Virus record (IMG/VR): IMGVR_UViG_3300042914_002678
DNA: 64,000 nt
Source: a virus
Lineage: Duplodnaviria; Caudoviricetes
Reading direction: 5' to 3' (one strand)
Numbering within the stretch: the stretch's first letter is position 1; each line of letters starts with the position of its first letter. Both the position numbers and the translations under genes were made by a program. Below the pieces are notes generated by a model. That model was not told where the DNA came from, searched no databases, and worked only from the letters and a program-made list of their open reading frames with translations. Shown piece after piece: positions 365-43,233 of the stretch.

Positions 365-2014
365 ATGAGTGACAACATTTATCTGGGCAATCCTAATCTA
401 AAAAGAGCAAATACACAAATTCAATTTACGGAAGAACAAATTATAGAGTTCTTGAAGTGTAAAGAAGATCCTGTATATTTTGCAAAGAACTATATTAAGA
501 TTGTTTCTCTGGATCACGGTCTTGTTCCTTTTGAGATGTATCCATTTCAAGAGAAACTTGTAAGAAACTTCCACGAGAACAGGTTTAATATTTGTAAGAT
601 GCCACGGCAGACTGGCAAATCAACCACCTGCGTATCCTACCTGCTCCACTACGCAGTTTTTAACGATAATGTTAATATTGCCATTCTAGCGAACAAAGCA
701 TCTACTGCAAGGGATCTTCTTGGAAGACTGCAACTTGCCTATGAGAATCTACCCAAGTGGATGCAGCAGGGTATTATATCTTGGAACAAAGGATCACTTG
801 AATTAGAAAATGGATCAAAAATTTCATCAAACTCTACTTCTTCATCTGCTGTCCGAGGCGGATCCTATAATGTCATCTTTTTGGACGAATTCGCGTTCAT
901 CCCGAATCACATTGCTGATGACTTCTTTGCCTCTGTTTATCCTACTATTTCTTCTGGTCAAAGCACAAAGGTAATTATTGTTTCCACTCCTCGCGGTATG
1001 AACCACTTCTACCGTATGTGGCATGATGCAGAACGTGGTAAAAATAGTTATGTTCCAACAGACGTTCATTGGTCAGAAGTTCCCGGTAGAGATGAAAAAT
1101 GGAAGCAACAGACTATTGATAATACTAGTGAACAGCAATTTAAAGTAGAATTTGAGTGTGAGTTTTTAGGATCGGTTAATACTTTAATTAATGCCGCAAA
1201 ATTAAAAAATCTTGTTTATGAAGATCCGATAAAAAGGAATGCAGGATTAGATATTTACGAAGAAAAAAAAGAAGAGCATAATTATTTAATGACAGTCGAT
1301 GTTGCAAGAGGACTTGGCAATGATTATTCTGCATTCATAGTATTTGATATTACAGAATTTCCATATAAAGTTGTTGCAAAATATAGAAATAATGAAATTA
1401 AACCTATGTTATTTCCCAATATTATCAATCAAGTAGCAAAAGCATATAATAATTCTTGGGTATTGATTGAAGTAAATGATATTGGTGATCAAGTATCAAA
1501 CATACTTCATTTTGATTTAGAGTATGATAATATATTAATGTGTTCTATGCGCGGAAGAGCAGGTCAAATAGTCGGATCTGGATTTAGTGGAAAAAAATCA
1601 CAACTTGGCGTTAGAATGACTTCCTCTGTTAAGAAATTGGGATGCTCAAATTTAAAAACTCTGATGGAGGATGATAAATTATTAACTGTAGATTATGATA
1701 TTATTTCAGAGTTAACAACATTTTCACAAAGACACAATTCTTTTGAAGCAGAAGAAGGTTGTAATGATGACCTGTCAATGTGCCTTGTTATTTTTTCTTG
1801 GCTAGTAGCACAAGATTATTTTAAAGAAATGACAGATAATGATGTTCGTAAAAAAATATATGAGGAACAAAAAAATCAAATAGAACAAGATATGTCTCCA
1901 TTCGGATTTATATCTGATGGTGTAAGTGAGATGACAAGTTTTGTTGATAATGATGGTGATAGGTGGTATACAGATGAATATGGAGATATGTCTTATATGT
2001 GGGATTATAAGTAA
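365..2014 (+). CDS. gp17: Terminase large subunit
   Basis: Walker A-like MPRQTGKST, Walker B IFLDEFAF, nuclease motifs TVDVARG and DDLSMC; T4-like N-terminus YLGNPNLK. Confidence 0.97.
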   Translation: MSDNIYLGNPNLKRANTQIQFTEEQIIEFLKCKEDPVYFAKNYIKIVSLDHGLVPFEMYPFQEKLVRNFHENRFNICKMPRQTGKSTTCVSYLLHYAVFNDNVNIAILANKASTARDLLGRLQLAYENLPKWMQQGIISWNKGSLELENGSKISSNSTSSSAVRGGSYNVIFLDEFAFIPNHIADDFFASVYPTISSGQSTKVIIVSTPRGMNHFYRMWHDAERGKNSYVPTDVHWSEVPGRDEKWKQQTIDNTSEQQFKVEFECEFLGSVNTLINAAKLKNLVYEDPIKRNAGLDIYEEKKEEHNYLMTVDVARGLGNDYSAFIVFDITEFPYKVVAKYRNNEIKPMLFPNIINQVAKAYNNSWVLIEVNDIGDQVSNILHFDLEYDNILMCSMRGRAGQIVGSGFSGKKSQLGVRMTSSVKKLGCSNLKTLMEDDKLLTVDYDIISELTTFSQRHNSFEAEEGCNDDLSMCLVIFSWLVAQDYFKEMTDNDVRKKIYEEQKNQIEQDMSPFGFISDGVSEMTSFVDNDGDRWYTDEYGDMSYMWDYK

Positions 2015-2242
2015 ATGGAACTTGACGATCAATTTGAATTAGATCATTTATTTTTTACAGAAAGAAAGTGTAGATCTTGCGGTATTAGAAAAGGTCTTAC
2101 AGACTCTTTTTATAGAATACGTAAAAATAACACTATATCATCTTCATATTCTTATGAGTGTAAGGAGTGTACCATAAAAAGAATTATAGAATCTAAAAAG
2201 AAAAAAAGATATAAAGTTGAGTGGGAATATCCAGATTGGTAA
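2015..2242 (+). CDS. Small CxxC...CxxC zinc-finger protein, conserved between gp17 and gp18 in cyanophages
   Basis: CRSC...CKEC, C-terminal WEYPDW; synteny. Confidence 0.7.
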   Translation: MELDDQFELDHLFFTERKCRSCGIRKGLTDSFYRIRKNNTISSSYSYECKECTIKRIIESKKKKRYKVEWEYPDW

Positions 2243-2325
2243 ACATTCATGCAGTGTTTCCCCAATAGAAATAGTATTTTTAATAAATATTTTTAGTATA
2301 ATCCTGGATATCACGGAGAATTAAG

Positions 2326-4473
2326 ATGCCACTAAATTTAGCATCTCCTGGAATTGTAGTAAGAGAAGTTGATTTAACCGTTGGGAGAGTTAGTCCTGCA
2401 AATAATAAAATAGGAGCTATTGTAGCACCTTTTCCTAAAGGTGCAGTAAATGAACCTATTTTGGTTTCAAATGAGCAAGAATTAATTAATAATTTTGGTA
2501 CTCCTTATCTTGCAGATAAGCAGTATGAAACTTGGTTAGTTGCCTCTTCATTTTTATCATATGGAGGTAGTCTTAGAGTAATTAGATCAGATGATGAAAA
2601 TATTTCTAATGCTTTTGTTGGATCAGCAACTAGCATAAAGATTAAAAGTTATGAAGACTACATTAACTTGGGATATGACGAAAATGTAATTTCTGGGGTA
2701 ACAGTTTGTGCTAAAGATCCTGGATCTTGGGCAAATGGTGTTAAAGTTGCAATCATTGATGCGAAAGCAGATCAGATTTTAAGTGGTCTTAGCACAGATA
2801 TTCAAGTTGGTTGTGGAGTAACTCAAGCAATTACTTCGGTTCTTGCTGGTTCAGGATCTACATCTGTTTTGGGTGGATATTTAAAGGGTGTAGTTACTGG
2901 AATAGGTGTAAGTTCAATCCAAGTAAAAGTTTTGAGTCATGTATCTGCAGCTGGAACAGAGACTACAGTAGATTATCAACCACAAGGAGTTTACTCTTTT
3001 GCGTCTGGAGGAACACTTGGTATTCATACCAGCGGTGTATTAACCGCATATACAACTAAAACATATGCCGCTCAACAAGATTGGTTTGATCAACAAACAA
3101 TCAGTCTTACAAATTCTACACTTTATTGGAATACTCTTGCAGATAGACCCTCAACCTCAAACTTTGCTGCAGCAAGAGGAGCAAGATTCGATGAAGTTCA
3201 CGTAGTTGTATTTGATGATATTGGGTCTGTTAGTGGAAATACTGGAACAATATTAGAAAAGCATCTTTCACTTTCTAAAGCGTCTGATGCGGAATTCTCT
3301 GTTGGAAGTACTTCGTACTGGAGAAAGTACATAGCAGAAAATTCTAGATATATTTTTGCTGGATCTGCACCGTCTGGAATTGTTACTACCGCATATACTT
3401 CTGGATTTACTTTAGCAACAGATACAGGTTGGGATCAATCTGCGAGTGGAATTTATTTTGCTGGAACAGGATCAAATGTTCTAACATTAGAAAATGGTAA
3501 AAATTATGATGGAGGTACTGATTTAACTGCAGAAGGATCACTCAGTTCAACCCTCGCCAATTTGTCTAGTGGTTATGGACTTCTTTCAAATTCGGATGAA
3601 TATGCAGTAGACTTCTTACTCATGGGATCTGCTGGATATGCAAAAGAAAACGCACAAGCACTTGCTTCAAAATTAATATCCGTAGCCGAAGAAAGAAAAG
3701 ATTGCCTGGCATTTATATCTCCATATAGATCTGCACTCTTAACAGAATCTTCTGGAAATAGATATGTTCTCAAAGATTCCGCCACAATTACGGATAATGT
3801 AATTAGTTATTATGCTTCAATTCCTTCTTCTTCTTTTGCAGTATTTGATAGTGGTTACAAGTACATGTATGATAGATTCTCCGATACTTTTAGATATGTT
3901 CCCTTGAATGGTGATATTGCTGGTTTGTGCGCTAGAACTGATTCTGTTTCCTTCCCATGGTTCTCACCAGCTGGAACTTCTAGAGGTGCTATTTTAAATG
4001 CCGTTAAACTTGCATACAATCCTTCAAAAACTCAAAGAGATAGACTTTATTCAAATAGAATTAATCCAGTTATATTCTCCCCAGGTGCAGGAATAATTTT
4101 ATTCGGTGATAAGACAGGACTTGCAAAATCGTCTGCATTTGATCGTATTAATGTTCGTAGATTGTTTATCTACCTTGAAGCGGCAATTTCTACTGTCGCA
4201 AAAGATCAATTATTCGAGTTTAATGATGAAACAACTAGAAGAAACTTTATAGCAACTGTTGAACCATTCCTAAGAGATATTCAATCAAAGCGAGGTATTG
4301 AAGATTATAGATTAATTTGTGATTCTACGAATAACACTGCTTCTGTTATTGATGCAAATGAATTTATTGCCGATATCTTTATTAAACCAAATAGATCTAT
4401 TAATTATATTGGCCTAACTTTTGTTGCCACTAAAACTGGTGTTTCTTTTGAAGAAGTAATCGGTACTGTTTAA
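2326..4473 (+). CDS. gp18: Tail sheath protein
   Basis: N-terminal LASPGIVVREVDLT, C-terminal PWFSPAG, FDRINVRRLF, FIKPNRSINYI. Confidence 0.97.
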   Translation: MPLNLASPGIVVREVDLTVGRVSPANNKIGAIVAPFPKGAVNEPILVSNEQELINNFGTPYLADKQYETWLVASSFLSYGGSLRVIRSDDENISNAFVGSATSIKIKSYEDYINLGYDENVISGVTVCAKDPGSWANGVKVAIIDAKADQILSGLSTDIQVGCGVTQAITSVLAGSGSTSVLGGYLKGVVTGIGVSSIQVKVLSHVSAAGTETTVDYQPQGVYSFASGGTLGIHTSGVLTAYTTKTYAAQQDWFDQQTISLTNSTLYWNTLADRPSTSNFAAARGARFDEVHVVVFDDIGSVSGNTGTILEKHLSLSKASDAEFSVGSTSYWRKYIAENSRYIFAGSAPSGIVTTAYTSGFTLATDTGWDQSASGIYFAGTGSNVLTLENGKNYDGGTDLTAEGSLSSTLANLSSGYGLLSNSDEYAVDFLLMGSAGYAKENAQALASKLISVAEERKDCLAFISPYRSALLTESSGNRYVLKDSATITDNVISYYASIPSSSFAVFDSGYKYMYDRFSDTFRYVPLNGDIAGLCARTDSVSFPWFSPAGTSRGAILNAVKLAYNPSKTQRDRLYSNRINPVIFSPGAGIILFGDKTGLAKSSAFDRINVRRLFIYLEAAISTVAKDQLFEFNDETTRRNFIATVEPFLRDIQSKRGIEDYRLICDSTNNTASVIDANEFIADIFIKPNRSINYIGLTFVATKTGVSFEEVIGTV

Positions 4474-33173: not shown

Positions 33174-33266
33174 ATAATAATACCTGATTTGACCGCAATC
33201 TGTCAGGAGGAGGGTGAAAATCCCTCCTTTTTATTATAAATACATATGCGGTCAAATTGGAGTAGA

Positions 33267-33881
33267 ATGAATTACCTAAAGGTTTATTGTAACCTTATCA
33301 GGAAAGCAGAAAATAGAACTCCTCCTGAAGGTTATGTTGAAAAGCATCACATATTTCCTAAAAGTATTTTTGGTAAAAATGATAGAGTTGTAATTCTCAC
33401 AGGGAGAGAACATTACATCGCTCACCTTCTTCTTCAAAAAATATGTGAGAAAAGATACGGAATAAGACATAGAAGCACGCAGAAGATGTTGTGTGCCCAT
33501 ATCAATATGAAATCAAAAGGAAGATATTGTAATTCATATTTGTATGAAAACGCAAGGGTAAAGAGAAGTGAAAGTATGAGAGGAGAACTTCACTGGAACT
33601 GGAAAGGTGGTGCTGTTAGGAAGTATAATTGTAAAAATAATAAAAAGTATAATAAAATAAACTATTACAATAAAAAAGAAAAATTTAATATAAATGATAA
33701 TTATAAAAGATATGAATATGAGTTAAAACATTCTTCTGGATTAATTGTTATGACTAAAAGTATGAGAAAGACCTGTGAAGAGTATGGATTAGATCATAGA
33801 ACTATGAATAAAATTATAAAGGGACAAAGAAAATCTCATAAAGGTTGGACTTGTAAAGAGGTGAAAGAATTGTCTATATAG
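33267..33881 (+). mobile_element. Free-standing HNH homing endonuclease
   Basis: YVEKHHIFPKS, LTGREHYIAHLLL, C-terminal KSHKGW repeat motif; late promoter 33235-33242. Confidence 0.85.
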
Positions 33882-37062: not shown

Positions 37063-37187
37063 TGAATTTGCCTATAAATGAAAAAGAGTTGGATGATATA
37101 ATTAAAATATTGGAAACTCGTAATCCACCACTTTATGCCAAGTTGTGGTCACATAAATTAAATAAATTAAAGGGGGAAAAAAATTAA
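37062..37187 (+). CDS. Small hypothetical protein (41 aa)
   Basis: Read by hand: MNLPINEKELDDIIKILETRNPPLYAKLWSHK...; TAATG overlaps on both sides. Confidence 0.6.
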   Translation: MNLPINEKELDDIIKILETRNPPLYAKLWSHKLNKLKGEKN

Positions 37188-38191
37188 TGGATTTTCTTAA
37201 AGATATCGTAAAAGAAATTGGTGGTGAGTATACACAACTTGCTTCCGACATTGATGAGACTGAAACTTATGTTGACACAGGTTCGTACATTTTTAATGCA
37301 CTGGTTTCAGGTAGCATATTTGGCGGTGTATCTGGCAACAAGATTACTGCTATTGCTGGAGAGTCTAGTACTGGAAAAACTTTCTTCAGCCTCGCCGTTG
37401 TTAAGAATTTTCTTGATACCAATCCCGATGGTTATTGCCTCTACTTTGATACTGAAGCTGCTATTACCAAATCTCTCTTAGAATCCCGTGGAATTGATAC
37501 TTCTCGTCTTGTGGTTGTTAATGTGGTTACTGTTGAAGAGTTTCGTGGAACTGCGCTCAAAGCAGTAGATATGTATATGAAAAAACCAGAAGCAGAACGA
37601 AAACCCTGCATTTTTGTGCTAGACTCTTTGGGAATGCTTTCAACGAGTAAGGAGATTAATGATGCTCTGAATGATAAAGAAGTTCGGGACATGACCAAAT
37701 CACAACTGATTAAAGGTGCATTCCGTATGCTTACCTTGAAACTTGGTCAAGCGAAAATTCCAATGATTGTAACCAATCACACTTATGATGTTATCGGTGC
37801 TTATGTTCCTACTAAGGAGATGGGGGGTGGTAGTGGTCTTAAGTATGCCGCTTCTACTATCATATATCTTAGTAAGAAAAAAGAAAAAGATGGAACTGAA
37901 GTTATTGGAAACATTATTAAGGCAAAGACTGCTAAGTCGCGTTTGAGCAAAGAAAACAAAGATGTAGAAGTTCGATTATTTTATGATGAACGAGGTCTTG
38001 ATCGATATTATGGATTACTTGAACTTGGTGAAATCGCAGGAATGTGGAAAAATGTCGCTGGTCGATATGAGATCAACGGCAAGAAAATTTATGGTAAAGA
38101 AATTTTAAAGAATCCTGATCAGTATTTTACCGAAGAAGTAATGCAGCAACTTGATGCTGCCGCTAAACTACAATTTTCTTATGGGACATAA
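37187..38191 (+). CDS. uvsX: RecA-like recombinase
   Basis: AGESSTGKT, YFDTE, VLDSLG, MGGGSG. Confidence 0.96.
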   Translation: MDFLKDIVKEIGGEYTQLASDIDETETYVDTGSYIFNALVSGSIFGGVSGNKITAIAGESSTGKTFFSLAVVKNFLDTNPDGYCLYFDTEAAITKSLLESRGIDTSRLVVVNVVTVEEFRGTALKAVDMYMKKPEAERKPCIFVLDSLGMLSTSKEINDALNDKEVRDMTKSQLIKGAFRMLTLKLGQAKIPMIVTNHTYDVIGAYVPTKEMGGGSGLKYAASTIIYLSKKKEKDGTEVIGNIIKAKTAKSRLSKENKDVEVRLFYDERGLDRYYGLLELGEIAGMWKNVAGRYEINGKKIYGKEILKNPDQYFTEEVMQQLDAAAKLQFSYGT

Positions 38192-39128
38192 AGTGCATAA
38201 TATAGTAGATTGCTTTCCATACTTTAATGAAAAGGAATTATTAGAATTGAGAATTAATCTCTTAAAAGATTATGTAGATAAATTTGTCATAGTTGACGCT
38301 AATTATACTCATAGTGGTAATAAAAAAGAGTATACTTTAAAAAAAACAATATCAGAATTAAAATTACCATCTGAAAAAATAGAAGTAATAGAAGTAGACT
38401 TATCTGAAGAATGTTTGCCAGATTGTGATTTTTACGATGAACATTTTTTAAATACAAGTCAAAAAACTTCAAGAGAAAGATTTCAAAGAGACGTAATATC
38501 TAAATGTTTAGATACAAATAATTTTTCAGAAGAAACTATTTTTATAATTAGTGATTGTGATGAAATTATAAATCCAAAATATATTGATACTTACAAAAAA
38601 GCATGTTATGATAATCCTCAGTTCATTTTTAAAGCAGATTTAGTATATTTGGAAGGTAAGTGTAATTGCAGGTTATATTGTTCAGATTCTCCGGATATTC
38701 CCGCTGAGTGGAGATATTCATTATTTTTCTGCAATAAGAATCAACTTAAAAATATGAGTTTAAGTGCGATTCGTGGTGGTGTATACGATTATCTTATTAG
38801 GTGGGTTTATTCTGGTGATGATAGAATTAAAGACGTTGGTTGGCATTTTTCTTGGATGGGATCAAATCAAAATAGAATATTAAAGTCAAAATCTTTTTGC
38901 CATTATAATCAGGAAATCGATACTTTAAAATATAGTAACTATTCAAACGTTGAAATGGAAAACTTTTTGTTAGAATATAATTTTAGTGAAGGTGAAATAT
39001 GCCCTAGTGGAAATATTGGTATGATTATCAAACAATATCCACTAGAAAATTTACCTCAGATTATATTTGATCTTCCCAGAGTTAAACAATTTCTCTTACC
39101 CCAACTAGCATATAATGGAACGAATTGA
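38181..39128 (+). CDS. Glycosyltransferase family 17-like (beta-1,4-GlcNAc transferase)
   Basis: DCFPYFNEKELLELRI, FVIVDANYTHSG, ISDCDEI, GWHFSW. Confidence 0.8.
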   Translation: MGHKVHNIVDCFPYFNEKELLELRINLLKDYVDKFVIVDANYTHSGNKKEYTLKKTISELKLPSEKIEVIEVDLSEECLPDCDFYDEHFLNTSQKTSRERFQRDVISKCLDTNNFSEETIFIISDCDEIINPKYIDTYKKACYDNPQFIFKADLVYLEGKCNCRLYCSDSPDIPAEWRYSLFFCNKNQLKNMSLSAIRGGVYDYLIRWVYSGDDRIKDVGWHFSWMGSNQNRILKSKSFCHYNQEIDTLKYSNYSNVEMENFLLEYNFSEGEICPSGNIGMIIKQYPLENLPQIIFDLPRVKQFLLPQLAYNGTN

Positions 39129-40494
39129 GACAACTATTCTCAGAAATTTAGTATTTAATGAAGATTACTCACGCAAAGTTATTCCTTTCATACAACCAGA
39201 TTATTTTGAGCAAAAGACCGAAAAGGTCATTTTTGAAGAGATTGTTCAATTCATTGTTAAGTATGGTTCGGCAATCACCATTGAAGCACTCAATATTGAG
39301 GTAGAAAATCGAACTGATTTAACCGAAGATCAGATTAAAGAAATCAGAGATATTAATGGTTCTTTAAATGATAATCTAGTTGATAAGCAATGGTTACTTG
39401 ATACTACCGAAAAGTGGTGTCGTGATCGTGCTATTTACCTGGCACTTATGGAATCTATCCATATTGCCGATGGAAATAATGATAAAAAGAATCGTGATGC
39501 GATTCCAAACATTCTTTCCGATGCTCTTGCAGTATCTTTTGATAATAATATTGGGCACGATTATTTAAATAACTATGAGGAACGATATGAGTTTTACCAC
39601 AGAAAAGAAGACAAAATTGAATTTGATCTCGAATACTTTAACAAAATCACAAAAGGTGGTCTCCCTAACAAAACTCTTAACATCGCTCTTGCTGGTACGG
39701 GCGTCGGGAAAAGTTTATTCATGTGCCATGTGGCTAGCTCCGTCTTGCTCCAAGGACGGAACGTTCTGTACATTACGTTGGAAATGGCAGAAGAACGCAT
39801 TGCTGAAAGAATTGACGCAAACCTTTTGAATGTGCCAATTCAACAATTAATTGATCTTCCGCGTTCAACATTTGAAAATAAAGTAAATGGTATTGTAAAA
39901 AAGACACAGGGATCTTTAATTATTAAGGAATATCCAACCGCTTCTGCACATTCTGGTCACTTCAAGGCACTTCTCAATGAACTTGCTCTTAAGAAATCAT
40001 TTCAACCTGATATTATTTTCATTGATTACCTCAATATTTGTGCTTCCAGTAGGCATAAGGCAAATAGTTCTATCAATTCTTATTCGTACATTAAGTCAAT
40101 TGCAGAAGAGTTACGTGGATTGGCAGTGGAATTCAATGTTCCCATTGTCTCTGCTACCCAGACCACTAGGAGTGGATTTGGTTCATCTGATCCAGAATTA
40201 ACTGATACAAGTGAGTCATTCGGTCTCCCTGCCACTGCTGATCTTATGTTTGCTCTTATTAGCACCGAAGAGTTGGAGCAATTGGGACAGATTATGGTGA
40301 AACAACTGAAAAACCGATATTCTTCAACTGATAAATATAAGAGGTTCGTGTTAGGAATTGATAGAGCAAAAATGCGTCTTTATGATTGTGAGCAAACCGC
40401 TCAGAAGGATATTTTAGATTCTGGTAAAGATAAAGATTTTGTTTATGACGATGAACCAAAAATAAAAAAATCATTTGATGGATTTAAATTCTAA
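39115..40494 (+). CDS. gp41: Replicative DNA helicase
   Basis: LAGTGVGKS, YITLEM, IFIDYLN, SATQTTRSG, KQLKNRY. Confidence 0.97.
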   Translation: MERIETTILRNLVFNEDYSRKVIPFIQPDYFEQKTEKVIFEEIVQFIVKYGSAITIEALNIEVENRTDLTEDQIKEIRDINGSLNDNLVDKQWLLDTTEKWCRDRAIYLALMESIHIADGNNDKKNRDAIPNILSDALAVSFDNNIGHDYLNNYEERYEFYHRKEDKIEFDLEYFNKITKGGLPNKTLNIALAGTGVGKSLFMCHVASSVLLQGRNVLYITLEMAEERIAERIDANLLNVPIQQLIDLPRSTFENKVNGIVKKTQGSLIIKEYPTASAHSGHFKALLNELALKKSFQPDIIFIDYLNICASSRHKANSSINSYSYIKSIAEELRGLAVEFNVPIVSATQTTRSGFGSSDPELTDTSESFGLPATADLMFALISTEELEQLGQIMVKQLKNRYSSTDKYKRFVLGIDRAKMRLYDCEQTAQKDILDSGKDKDFVYDDEPKIKKSFDGFKF

Positions 40495-41213
40495 TGGCAA
40501 TTATTTACTGTATTCATAGTTTATCTACTGGTAAAAAATACATAGGGCAAACTATTGAAAAAATGCAGAGAAGAGTTTTGCGTCATTTTAGAACTATAAA
40601 TGAAACTAAAATTAGCAGGGAAATTCAAAAATATAGTAAATATGATTTTGTTTATGGTGTAGTTGAAGAAATAGAAGATAAAAATTTATTAGATGAAAGA
40701 GAACAATATTGGATAAAATATTATGATTCTATAGATAATGGATTTAATATTAAAGAAGGTGGTAAATGTGCAAGAGGATTTAAACAATCTAAAAGTTCTA
40801 TAGAAAAAAGAAGAAAAAAATTAATTGGAAGACCTTTGAGCGAGGAGCATAAGCAAAAGTTAAGTAAAGCACATAAAGGAAAAGTTTTATCAAGAGAAAC
40901 AGTTGATAAAATGATCGCATATAGAACTGGTAGAAAACTTACTAAAAGTTGTAAAGAAAAAATTTCTCAATCACATTCAAAAAATACTTACGAATTAAAA
41001 AAAGAAGATGGAACTATTTTGGTAATTAAAAATCTAGCAAAATTTTGTAGAGATAACAATTTTTCCCAAAGTTATTTTAGTCGTATTTTGAGAGGAGAAA
41101 GAAAAACTTATAAGGGATGGACTATCAAGATACTTGACAGTGGGCAGGATGATGAGTATAATGATTATGAAGACAAGAAACCTAAAAAATCGTTTGAAGG
41201 ATTTAAATTTTAA
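40494..41213 (+). mobile_element. GIY-YIG homing endonuclease with NUMOD3-like repeats, fused to the former gp41 C-terminus
   Basis: IIYCI...KKYIGQT, EREQYWI, SEEHKQKLSKAH; ends ILDSGQDDEYNDYEDKKPKKSFEGFKF. Confidence 0.9.
41134..41162 (+). promoter_or_regulatory. Consensus sigma70 promoter upstream of mazG, inside the duplicated gp41 tail
   Basis: TTGACA-N17-TATAAT. Confidence 0.8.
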
Positions 41214-41629
41214 TGGAAACTGCTAAACACGTTAATTTTGATAAGTATGCTGAGTTTGTGGATGCCGTAACTTCTGACGCATCCAAAGACTTTCTTGCTC
41301 TTTCTGACCGTTTGGTTGAACTGGATGAAAAGGGTGCAAATATTGAACGACTTCTGACTGCCTCTGTTGGCATTAATGCTGAAGGTGGTGAGTTTATGGA
41401 GATTGTGAAGAAAATGATCTTCCAAGGTAAACCCTATAACGAAGACAACCGCGAGCACCTGATTATTGAACTGGGTGATATTATGTGGTACGTTGCTCAG
41501 GCATGTATGGCACTTGGTGTTAGTATTGATGATGTAGTTGCTCGTAATGTACAAAAACTTCTCAAGCGTTATCCTGAAGGTGCGTTTGATGTTTATTTCT
41601 CCGAAAACCGTGCTGCTGATGATCGATGA
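41213..41629 (+). CDS. mazG: MazG-like nucleotide pyrophosphohydrolase
   Basis: GINAEGGEFMEIVKK, ELGDIMWY, KLLKRYP. Confidence 0.92.
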   Translation: METAKHVNFDKYAEFVDAVTSDASKDFLALSDRLVELDEKGANIERLLTASVGINAEGGEFMEIVKKMIFQGKPYNEDNREHLIIELGDIMWYVAQACMALGVSIDDVVARNVQKLLKRYPEGAFDVYFSENRAADDR

Positions 41630-41811
41630 CTAAACAAAAACAAGTGACAATTAAAATGGATCTTTCTACTGCTGGAGCAGTACGTCAAGTTCTTTTTGAT
41701 TCTCAAAAAGGATATAGTGACGAGTATACCCCAGAAAGAATTTTAAATATTCGCACAGTAATTGCGGAAATTGATTGCAATTTTGCTCATATTATGGGTG
41801 TTGATGTGTGA
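41626..41811 (+). CDS. Hypothetical protein
   Basis: ATGA-coupled ORF followed by an accc-TTCG-gggt hairpin. Confidence 0.6.
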   Translation: MTKQKQVTIKMDLSTAGAVRQVLFDSQKGYSDEYTPERILNIRTVIAEIDCNFAHIMGVDV

Positions 41812-41828
41812 CCCTTCGGGGTTTTACT

Positions 41829-41899
41829 GGGGAATTAGTTAAACGGTATAACGGGTGCTTTGCAAGCACTTATTAGGAGTTCGATTCTCCTATTCTCCA
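41829..41899 (+). tRNA. tRNA-Ala(UGC)
   Basis: Acceptor ggggaat/attctcc with G3:U70, anticodon loop tt-TGC-aa, TTCGA T-loop. Confidence 0.9.
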
Positions 41900-41902
41900 T
41901 TT

Positions 41903-41975
41903 GCCCGTGTACTCCAACGGTAGAGAGGGTGGACTTAGAATCCATACAGTGGAAGTTCAAATCTTCTCACGGGCA
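41903..41975 (+). tRNA. tRNA-Leu(UAG) with a short variable loop
   Basis: Acceptor gcccgtg/cacgggc, anticodon ct-TAG-aa, TTCAAAT T-loop, A73. Confidence 0.85.
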
Positions 41976-41991
41976 CTAAATAAAAATAAAA

Positions 41992-43233
41992 ATGGCAAGT
42001 TACGGAGTTGATAATTGGAATAGAAATTGGAAAGGTAGTGATCACCAATCTACTGTGAAAAAATCATCTTCTGCTTACTATAGAAAAAATAAAAATAATA
42101 CTTTTTCTAGAATTGGCAATTTAAATGAAGGAACTCAAATAACTTATATTGATTCTGAAACTAAATCTCATACTAGAGCGGCAATTAAGTTACCTAATAG
42201 AGACGACATTTATTATATTAATATTGATAATTTAATAAAACCTAAGAAAACTGATAGGTCTTATATTTCTTTAAATCCAGGTTCTTTTGGATTAGAAAGT
42301 CAAACTTATGCTTCTGCCACAACTTATTACAATTCAGTTATAAATTCGTTGAATTTGAGAAATGATATTGACGGAGAGTTGTTTGATTATCTACACCAAC
42401 TTTTAAACTATGTAAAAACAGGATCTCATGATTATGAAGGCATTAAGATGACTGGATTCCCTTGGGGACCGTTAATGAAAGATTTTGGAGAGGTACTCGG
42501 ACCTATAGCTTGTGTGAAAAGAGGAATATTAAATCAAATAGTACCAACAGTAGGACTTACTTCACCTAAAATTTATATTCCGTCTTCTGGACAATCAGTT
42601 TATGATTATAAACTCATAATTGGAACAACAGAACATTTAATATCCGCTAAATCGGGAAAAGGAGTTTCTAATCAAGTTAAACCGCAGTATGTAATTCCTG
42701 TAGTTCAAGATAATTTATCAAGTGCTTTATTAATGTCTGAATCTTATAAATTATTGAAAATATTATCAAATTATAGTATTAAGCAAGGTCCTTTTTATGG
42801 ATGGCAACTTCTACAAACTAGAGTTGAATTGACTAATGCTGCAATTTCAGATATGGAAACAAATTATGCTCCTAGAAATAAAAAAGGATCGAGTATAATA
42901 GTCGATTATGAATCTTGGAAACCATTTTTAAAAAGATATTTTTCTGGAAGAAAAAGAGTTACATATGGACAAGTTAGGTATAAATGTGAACAGTTAATTG
43001 AAAGTGAATCTAAAGTTGGTATGTTAAATCAAAATCTTAGAAAAATATTTAATGTGTATTTGAATGAATCGAGAATAATTTATGTTAAGACTACTATAAA
43101 TGCCAGAACAGGAATTCCAACTATTACCGCATCTTCTGGTGGAGGATCTTCTGCTGTAAGGAGACTTTATTTAAGATCATCAAATAGTTCTCCGACAAGA
43201 ACTGGTGATAAAATGGGATTTCAGATTAGTTAA
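41992..43233 (+). CDS. Hypothetical protein, possible SH3-like N-terminus and PD-(D/E)xK-like nuclease domain
   Basis: FGEVLGP, YDY...ISAKS; CTAAATA at 41976-41982. Confidence 0.5.
   Translation: MASYGVDNWNRNWKGSDHQSTVKKSSSAYYRKNKNNTFSRIGNLNEGTQITYIDSETKSHTRAAIKLPNRDDIYYINIDNLIKPKKTDRSYISLNPGSFGLESQTYASATTYYNSVINSLNLRNDIDGELFDYLHQLLNYVKTGSHDYEGIKMTGFPWGPLMKDFGEVLGPIACVKRGILNQIVPTVGLTSPKIYIPSSGQSVYDYKLIIGTTEHLISAKSGKGVSNQVKPQYVIPVVQDNLSSALLMSESYKLLKILSNYSIKQGPFYGWQLLQTRVELTNAAISDMETNYAPRNKKGSSIIVDYESWKPFLKRYFSGRKRVTYGQVRYKCEQLIESESKVGMLNQNLRKIFNVYLNESRIIYVKTTINARTGIPTITASSGGGSSAVRRLYLRSSNSSPTRTGDKMGFQIS

Follow-up and report, generated by a model that had tools for sequence, protein, structure and literature searches.

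A mobile genetic element appears to have settled inside an essential gene in the window examined here, a stretch of 64,000 nucleotides (nt) of phage DNA (IMG/VR record IMGVR_UViG_3300042914_002678) belonging to a 98.6-kb viral contig of a T4-like cyanophage. In this part of the contig, uvsX (37187-38191) is followed in order by a GT17-like glycosyltransferase gene, gp41 coding for the replicative helicase, an open reading frame (ORF) of 239 codons, and mazG. The 239-codon ORF encodes a GIY-YIG homing endonuclease. The preferred interpretation, to which a probability of about 0.85 is given, is that a mobile homing endonuclease gene (HEG) cassette carrying a replacement gp41 end was inserted within the helicase gene, the old end of gp41 being retained downstream as promoter and coupling site of mazG.

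The gp41 ORF (39115-40494, + strand) is complete and codes for a DnaB-like helicase of 459 amino acids (Pfam DnaB_C, 1.6e-20), matched over residues 7-429 by T4 gp41 structures (8dtp and others) at 7e-99. Its last 27 codons and stop (40411-40494, +), referred to below as the new tail, overlap the HEG start in a TAATG motif at 40492-40496. The full endonuclease ORF (40494-41213) consists of a body of 212 codons (40494-41129, +) followed in frame by a second gp41 tail as codons 213-239 (41130-41213, +), and the stop of this old tail, formerly that of gp41, overlaps the mazG start in a TAATG at 41211-41215. The two tails, equal in length and identical at 60 of 84 nt, finish with the common motif K-K-S-F-x-G-F-K-F. 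A putative sigma-70-type promoter of mazG, TTGACA-N17-TATAAT, is located in the old tail (41134-41162, +), with its -35 hexamer at 41134-41139, a 17-nt spacer and its -10 hexamer at 41157-41162; the insertion point stands 4 nt 5' of the -35 hexamer. This is the sole 12/12 consensus match in the 3.1 kb between 38900 and 42000, and the new tail lacks the hexamers. The original prediction, made from the letters of the window, had described gp41 and the GIY-YIG ORF as both ending in a helicase tail, the old one fused in frame to the nuclease, with the perfect promoter in the downstream copy only; the ORFs, tails and promoter are found as described. It had also restricted the TAATG coupling to the downstream copy. 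The coupling to mazG is present, but the gp41/HEG junction has a TAATG as well, both junctions sharing a TAATGG context, and the coupling signal has therefore been duplicated too.

Comparison with HEG-less relatives identifies the downstream tail as the ancestral end of gp41. A scan of viral contigs with the endonuclease returned 31 loci in which the match was limited to its last 27 residues; these are without exception endonuclease-free gp41 genes. Because this first set had been fished with the tail itself, a second sample was drawn using the gp41 body, giving with the tail-derived set 88 distinct HEG-less gp41 ends. A downstream-type tail is joined directly to mazG in 88/88, and upstream-type tail motifs occur in 0/88. 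The promoter is present at the tail position in 68 of these ends with a strict pattern and in 80 with a relaxed one. The freshwater Synechococcus phage S-SRM01, the nearest isolate (84.6% nucleotide identity across this region), and DSL-LC03 have no endonuclease at this junction either, gp41 joining mazG via a downstream-type tail that includes the promoter. The old tail of the window is identical over 84/84 nt to the gp41 tail of the HEG-less locus L047, and its new tail matches at most 64 of 84 nt in any of the 88 HEG-less tails. The polarity first proposed, with the downstream tail as ancestral, is thus the one borne out by the uniform HEG-less type and the L047 match, and the suggested search for HEG-less relatives with an upstream-type tail yielded none among the 88.

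Judged by its domains, the element is a free-standing GIY-YIG HEG of the I-TevI/Seg-like type. Its body includes a catalytic domain (residues ~1-88), a NUMOD3-containing linker and a C-terminal DNA-binding domain (~163-212). Pfam profiles for GIY-YIG (PF01541; 1.1e-7, 32.5 bits for a cut-off of 22.6) and NUMOD3 (1.8e-5, 25 bits for a cut-off of 20.4) are both matched, as are the I-TevI catalytic domain structures 1ln0 (4.5e-6) and 1mk0, identity to I-TevI being ~30% and confined to the catalytic domain. In that domain, Y5, Y16, G18, R27, E70 and N85 are invariant in an alignment of 15 homologues. The median ratio of nonsynonymous to synonymous divergence (omega) of the HEG body is 0.17, which points to an intact gene under purifying selection. 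An AlphaFold2 model displays three parts (catalytic domain, low-confidence linker and folded C-terminal domain, 163-213) plus a disordered tail; the last folded strand covers residues 209-213, and residues 216-239 have a predicted local distance difference test score (pLDDT) below 50 without secondary structure. Related endonucleases of other phages stop at the equivalent of residues 215-222. The 27-residue tail is thus predicted to be a disordered appendage past the usual C-terminus of the family. An intron- or intein-borne HEG was ruled out, as gp41 has a normal stop and a complete tail and the HEG is a separate ORF starting from the TAATG overlap; no Rfam match to a group I intron was obtained in 39000-42100. 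An RNA structure masking the HEG start was not found either, the fold being no better than that of shuffled sequence (z = 0.65).

A second endonuclease-like ORF of 211 amino acids lies elsewhere in the window (33246-33881, +). It displays by eye an HNH-like N-terminal motif, and its C-terminal module scores 25.5 bits with Pfam I-HmuI_NUMOD-like, just under the cut-off of 27 bits, and shares 32% identity with residues 149-213 of the GIY-YIG enzyme. This ORF stops 10 residues past the K-G-W motif, thereby showing the usual end of that DNA-binding module.

The occupied locus was sampled as 24 distinct complete alleles from viral contigs and a metagenome scan. The same junction, K-G-W-x-I-K followed by I-L-D, is found in all of them, and at least 88 HEG-less alleles make it a presence/absence polymorphism. 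The recurrence of one architecture and one junction in 24 distinct alleles on independent viral and metagenome contigs rules out chance or misassembly. Relative to the window, identity is 83-95% for the HEG body, 73-88% for the gp41 body and 65-90% for mazG, and in both flanking genes carriers and non-carriers are intermingled. The HEG is thus better conserved than its flanks and discordant with its gp41 and mazG backgrounds. Between L015 and L016, synonymous divergence (dS) reaches 0.53 in the old tail versus 0.09 in the HEG body. Old tails being far more diverged than the adjoining HEG, they therefore belong to the recipient genome, and right-hand crossovers would fall where they begin. Together, these patterns speak for present or recent mobility of the element. 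Two copies have an unusual state: L258 (1584-1590) carries a TGA at HEG codon 2 and may be a pseudogene or decaying copy, and the gp41 of L247 has an in-frame stop just before the tail, maybe due to a sequencing error or a defective genome.

The footprint of the element extends into gp41. In the non-duplicated stretch before the new tail (40301-40410, +), which would be a co-converted or foreign haplotype, identity is 85% among carriers and 78% among non-carriers versus 67% between the groups (maximum 75.5%). The corresponding values for the tail (40411-40491) are 83%, 83% and 67%, and carriers and non-carriers are undifferentiated in two regions farther upstream. In a sliding comparison, carriers resemble the window from ~40300 through the endonuclease, and, if their background differs, the similarity decreases sharply at the old tail and mazG; HEG-less loci fall to 62-72% over 40310-40494. 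The differentiation of the non-duplicated 40301-40410 stretch, as strong as that of the tail, argues for an imported or long-separated haplotype and against drift of a local duplicate. From these comparisons, the mobile unit is delimited as the last ~190 nt of a divergent gp41 end together with the endonuclease ORF. The proposal that the element supplies a replacement gp41 end is thus upheld with a longer block than first suggested, of which only the final 84 nt are duplicated. The block includes a diagnostic cluster at 40321-40331, where NDPT is replaced by SSTD, a change seen in 0/88 HEG-less ends. This cluster, the most conspicuous of the linked substitutions, was considered as nuclease target or immunity site, the original prediction having proposed that the recoding would remove the nuclease's own target. 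The idea is weakened by L254, which is HEG-bearing with NDPT, and the cluster remains a candidate. The HEG-less locus L161 (1440-1700) has the sequence of the carrier L016 as far as the tail start and, from the tail into mazG, that of the non-carrier L105. This locus is a large recombinant, resulting either from HEG loss via recombination between the tail copies or from a cross between carrier and non-carrier.

The fate of the old tail differs among alleles. It is fused in frame to the HEG in 17/24 and truncated in 7/24, and these states require at least three changes on the HEG tree, at least two of them forced by well-supported branches. Three kinds of truncation are observed. In L017 and L248, in-frame stops precede a remainder of the tail that is still present. 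In L018, L254 and L257, a rewritten short end precedes both a promoter-like TTGACT-N17-TAAAAT and a new ribosome-binding site; no tail coding is left in L018-type alleles, the promoter-like pattern being kept. In L252 and L255, the end is short and the region beyond it differs. Truncation has not released the enzymes from purifying selection (omega of 0.16 for L017 vs L018). The promoter is present downstream of the HEG in 21/24 alleles, including some in which the tail coding is destroyed, and is found in none of the 23 assessable upstream tails (0/10 in the comparison made alongside the 88 HEG-less ends). Thus, the two copies seem, from these patterns, to have split their former jobs: the upstream one codes and has lost the promoter, and the downstream one keeps the promoter, its coding capacity decaying in several lineages.

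A non-endonuclease insert, coding for a 169-amino-acid 2OG-Fe(II) oxygenase, occupies the gp41-mazG junction of L055 (3084-3682). Behind it, a frameshifted non-coding tail remnant keeps TTGACT-N17-TATAAT and the TAATG to mazG, and the upstream gp41 tail of this locus has a mutated -35 hexamer. L055 is the only other junction insertion with duplicated tails among ~230 loci. Considering the repeated loss of the fusion, the conservation of the promoter, the non-coding remnant of L055 and the predicted disorder of the tail, the old tail is most likely kept as regulatory DNA for mazG, providing promoter and coupling, and the in-frame fusion would be a tolerated by-product. The ratio of nonsynonymous to synonymous divergence (dN/dS) of the old tails is uninformative on selection for the fused peptide because these tails stem from the recipient, where they evolved until recently as part of gp41.

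Other histories of the two tails can be envisaged. In principle, either boundary could be the insertion point since the same TAATGG stands at both junctions, and the upstream tail would then be native and the downstream one imported with the endonuclease. This polarity is scarcely credible: no upstream-type end is found in the 88 HEG-less gp41 genes, variation in the downstream tails follows the local mazG background, with matches to HEG-less alleles of up to 84/84 nt, and that in the upstream tails follows the HEG. The upstream tail as native end was therefore already refuted by the HEG-less alleles. An origin in situ would dispense with any foreign end. The gp41 tail would have been tandemly duplicated when the HEG landed in one ancestral phage, and the upstream copy would have diverged fast, the promoter constraint being lifted and selection acting against repeat-mediated deletion or self-cleavage. 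Such an origin would fit the equal length and shared terminal motif of the tails, the high variability of the middle part of the new tails among HEG alleles, and the duplication in L055, whose two copies are both old-type. It would also fit the result of a scan with the 62-residue gp41 end, in which no HEG-less donor lineage of the replacement end was present among the matches listed. It is nevertheless judged unlikely, as the 110 nt before the tail are unduplicated and promoter-free, yet equally differentiated (67%), and the sequence is undifferentiated farther upstream, a block-like pattern expected from an imported or co-converted segment. Some observations do weigh against the replacement cassette as formulated above. 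The HEG-bearing L254 lacks the upstream diagnostic cluster, having NDPT, so that the minimal linked unit may be the tail and HEG only, the cluster being dispensable for coexistence with the HEG. The only HEG-less gp41 seen with the block is L161, a recombinant, and as no donor was found, a very fast divergence in situ keeps part of its plausibility. Regarding the old tail, the 17 alleles of 24 still fused in frame are compatible with a mild benefit of the peptide, and the activity of the mazG promoter is inferred from two features, its consensus match and its conservation.

The in-frame fusion itself could be functional, the captured tail docking the nuclease on the clamp, the clamp loader or another replisome partner, or letting it compete with gp41. 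In T4, stimulation of primase by the clamp and the clamp loader requires the last 20 residues of gp41 (PMC3012046), making such a tail a plausible interaction peptide; its predicted disorder is that of docking peptides, and the frame runs to the old stop in the 17 fused alleles. If true, the docking peptide would tether the endonuclease to replicating phage DNA and couple cleavage and homing to forks in those lineages that keep the tail. Against this stand at least two to three independent losses by nonsense mutation, rewriting and deletion, the HEG body still being constrained. Moreover, the old tails recently coded for gp41 in the recipient, and an intact frame needs no selection in the HEG context, whereas truncated alleles conserve the promoter and not the peptide. 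A peptide serving the nuclease, as in the replisome recruitment that the original prediction had put forward, is therefore disfavoured, all the more so as the L055 remnant is non-coding and the tail is predicted to be disordered and lies beyond the usual C-terminus of the family; a functional fusion is regarded as improbable. Retention of the old tail as regulatory DNA of mazG is the reading adopted below.

A scheme can be proposed for the replacement cassette. gp41 is completed by the tail of the cassette, which carries the terminal K-K-S-F-x-G-F-K-F motif and no promoter. The HEG, devoid of its own promoter, would be translated, probably at a low level, via the duplicated TAATG stop/start overlap on transcripts reading through from gp41. 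Downstream, the native 27-codon tail would continue to act as promoter, translation-initiation region and TAATG coupling site for mazG, a gene reported to have a putative early promoter in S-PM2 (PMC2297514). The junction would be in frame by chance, and the HEG ORF therefore extends across the native tail as far as the former stop of gp41. By analogy with the T4 Seg enzymes (PMC2988022), the nuclease would cut HEG-less gp41 alleles in mixed infections. The double-strand break would be repaired from the HEG-bearing co-infecting genome, with a left crossover in the gp41 body and a right one where the old tail begins. Resistance of the carrier to its own nuclease would result from its divergent gp41 end and from the interruption of the native sequence at the junction.

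The MazG-like pyrophosphatase gene (41213-41629, +; Pfam MazG, 3.3e-9) adjoins gp41 directly in HEG-less relatives. About 200 nt 3' of it, beyond a 61-codon ORF, two neighbouring tRNA genes are found (41829-41975, +; Rfam, 65 and 58 bits). On the other side of gp41, the slot following uvsX is filled in the window by the GT17-like glycosyltransferase gene (38181-39128, +). In relatives, it is empty (DSL-LC03) or occupied by a homing endonuclease (S-SRM01) or 2OG-Fe(II)-oxygenase-like ORFs (L007, L011). The overlap between the end of the glycosyltransferase gene and the gp41 start has the ATGG context that is supplied by the uvsX end in phages lacking an insert; with its overlap context reproduced, the uvsX-gp41 junction is therefore another insertion slot with overlapping signals. 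Further selfish elements seem to be present in the helicase gene, as gp41 is interrupted near the P-loop in L014 (493-2989), L017 (3-3001) and L049 (about 1700-3084). The L014 break falls right after A-L-A-G and is followed by C, which gives it an intein-like look, and the L017 interruption contains an additional NUMOD3-containing ORF. The DNA polymerase gp43 of the window ends (37060) with the aromatic sequence L-E-S-F-F-S, and the gp41 tails (40465-40491 and 41184-41210) end with S-F-x-G-F-K-F; we take these aromatic ends to resemble the short sliding-clamp docking tails of T4-type replisomes.

Phage HEGs are known as intergenic, intron-borne or intein-borne elements. The architecture found here would add another route into essential coding sequence, in which the HEG brings along a spare gene end, a strategy earlier documented mainly in fungal mitochondria. 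No description of a phage HEG with such a C-terminal swap was found in a limited literature search, which is not proof of absence. For annotation, this implies that the 27 C-terminal residues of the nuclease are not part of its native fold and that the last ~60 gp41 codons of such phages differ in history from the rest of the gene.

The enzyme resembles I-TevI of the T4 td intron by its GIY-YIG domain, its long linker with a NUMOD3-type element and its small C-terminal DNA-binding domain. Unlike I-TevI, it is not intron-encoded and carries the 27-residue appendage past the normal C-terminus. F-CphI of cyanophage S-PM2 (PMC6083498, PMC3037559) is likewise a free-standing HEG in a T4-like cyanophage beside a conserved gene, targeting its neighbour psbA, whereas it belongs to an Endo VII-like family and is intergenic, with no replacement or duplication of a host gene end.

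The free-standing Seg and Mob HEGs of T4 (segG next to gene 32, segA, segE, mobB, mobC) contain, within their coding sequences, promoters that serve downstream genes (PMC2988022). The similarities with T4 Seg include a free-standing GIY-YIG enzyme, the orientation of the neighbours and a promoter-less cassette expressed from the transcript of the upstream gene. As in T4 Seg and Mob genes, a downstream-gene promoter, here a predicted one, lies inside the 3' coding region of the HEG and would disfavour its deletion. T4 Seg enzymes co-convert flanking markers, whereas the present locus displays a sequence footprint only, made of the 190-nt linked block upstream and recipient-type sequence immediately downstream. 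The seg and mob genes are intergenic, whereas the HEG of the window stands within a coding region and must replace the end of the gene. The origin of the embedded promoter is, moreover, visible here as the captured end of the upstream gene, which may provide an origin for promoters embedded in HEGs.

The closest parallel is found in the mobile endonuclease ORFs (mORFs) of fungal mitochondria with C-terminal swaps, identified in atp6 of Allomyces macrogynus and in atp6, atp9, cox2 and nad3 of Glomus (PMC3630166, citing Paquin et al. 1994). In both systems, an endonuclease ORF lies within the 3' end of a host gene, a divergent in-phase C-terminus completes this gene, and the native C-terminus, the copy nearest to ORF-less relatives, is left downstream. 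In-phase read-through between the parts exists for some mORFs, comparable with the fusion of the HEG to the old tail in the window. Unlike in mORFs, the element resides in a lytic phage and not in an organelle, its nuclease belongs to the phage I-TevI/Seg type, and the leftover end holds a conserved putative promoter and the mazG coupling. This second role would explain both the retention of the old tail and its pattern of decay: a stretch once both coding and regulatory was duplicated, and each copy kept one job. Finally, in contrast to the mitochondrial cases, population data are at hand and offer a natural series of stages, which includes empty and occupied sites as well as a recombinant and several truncated forms.

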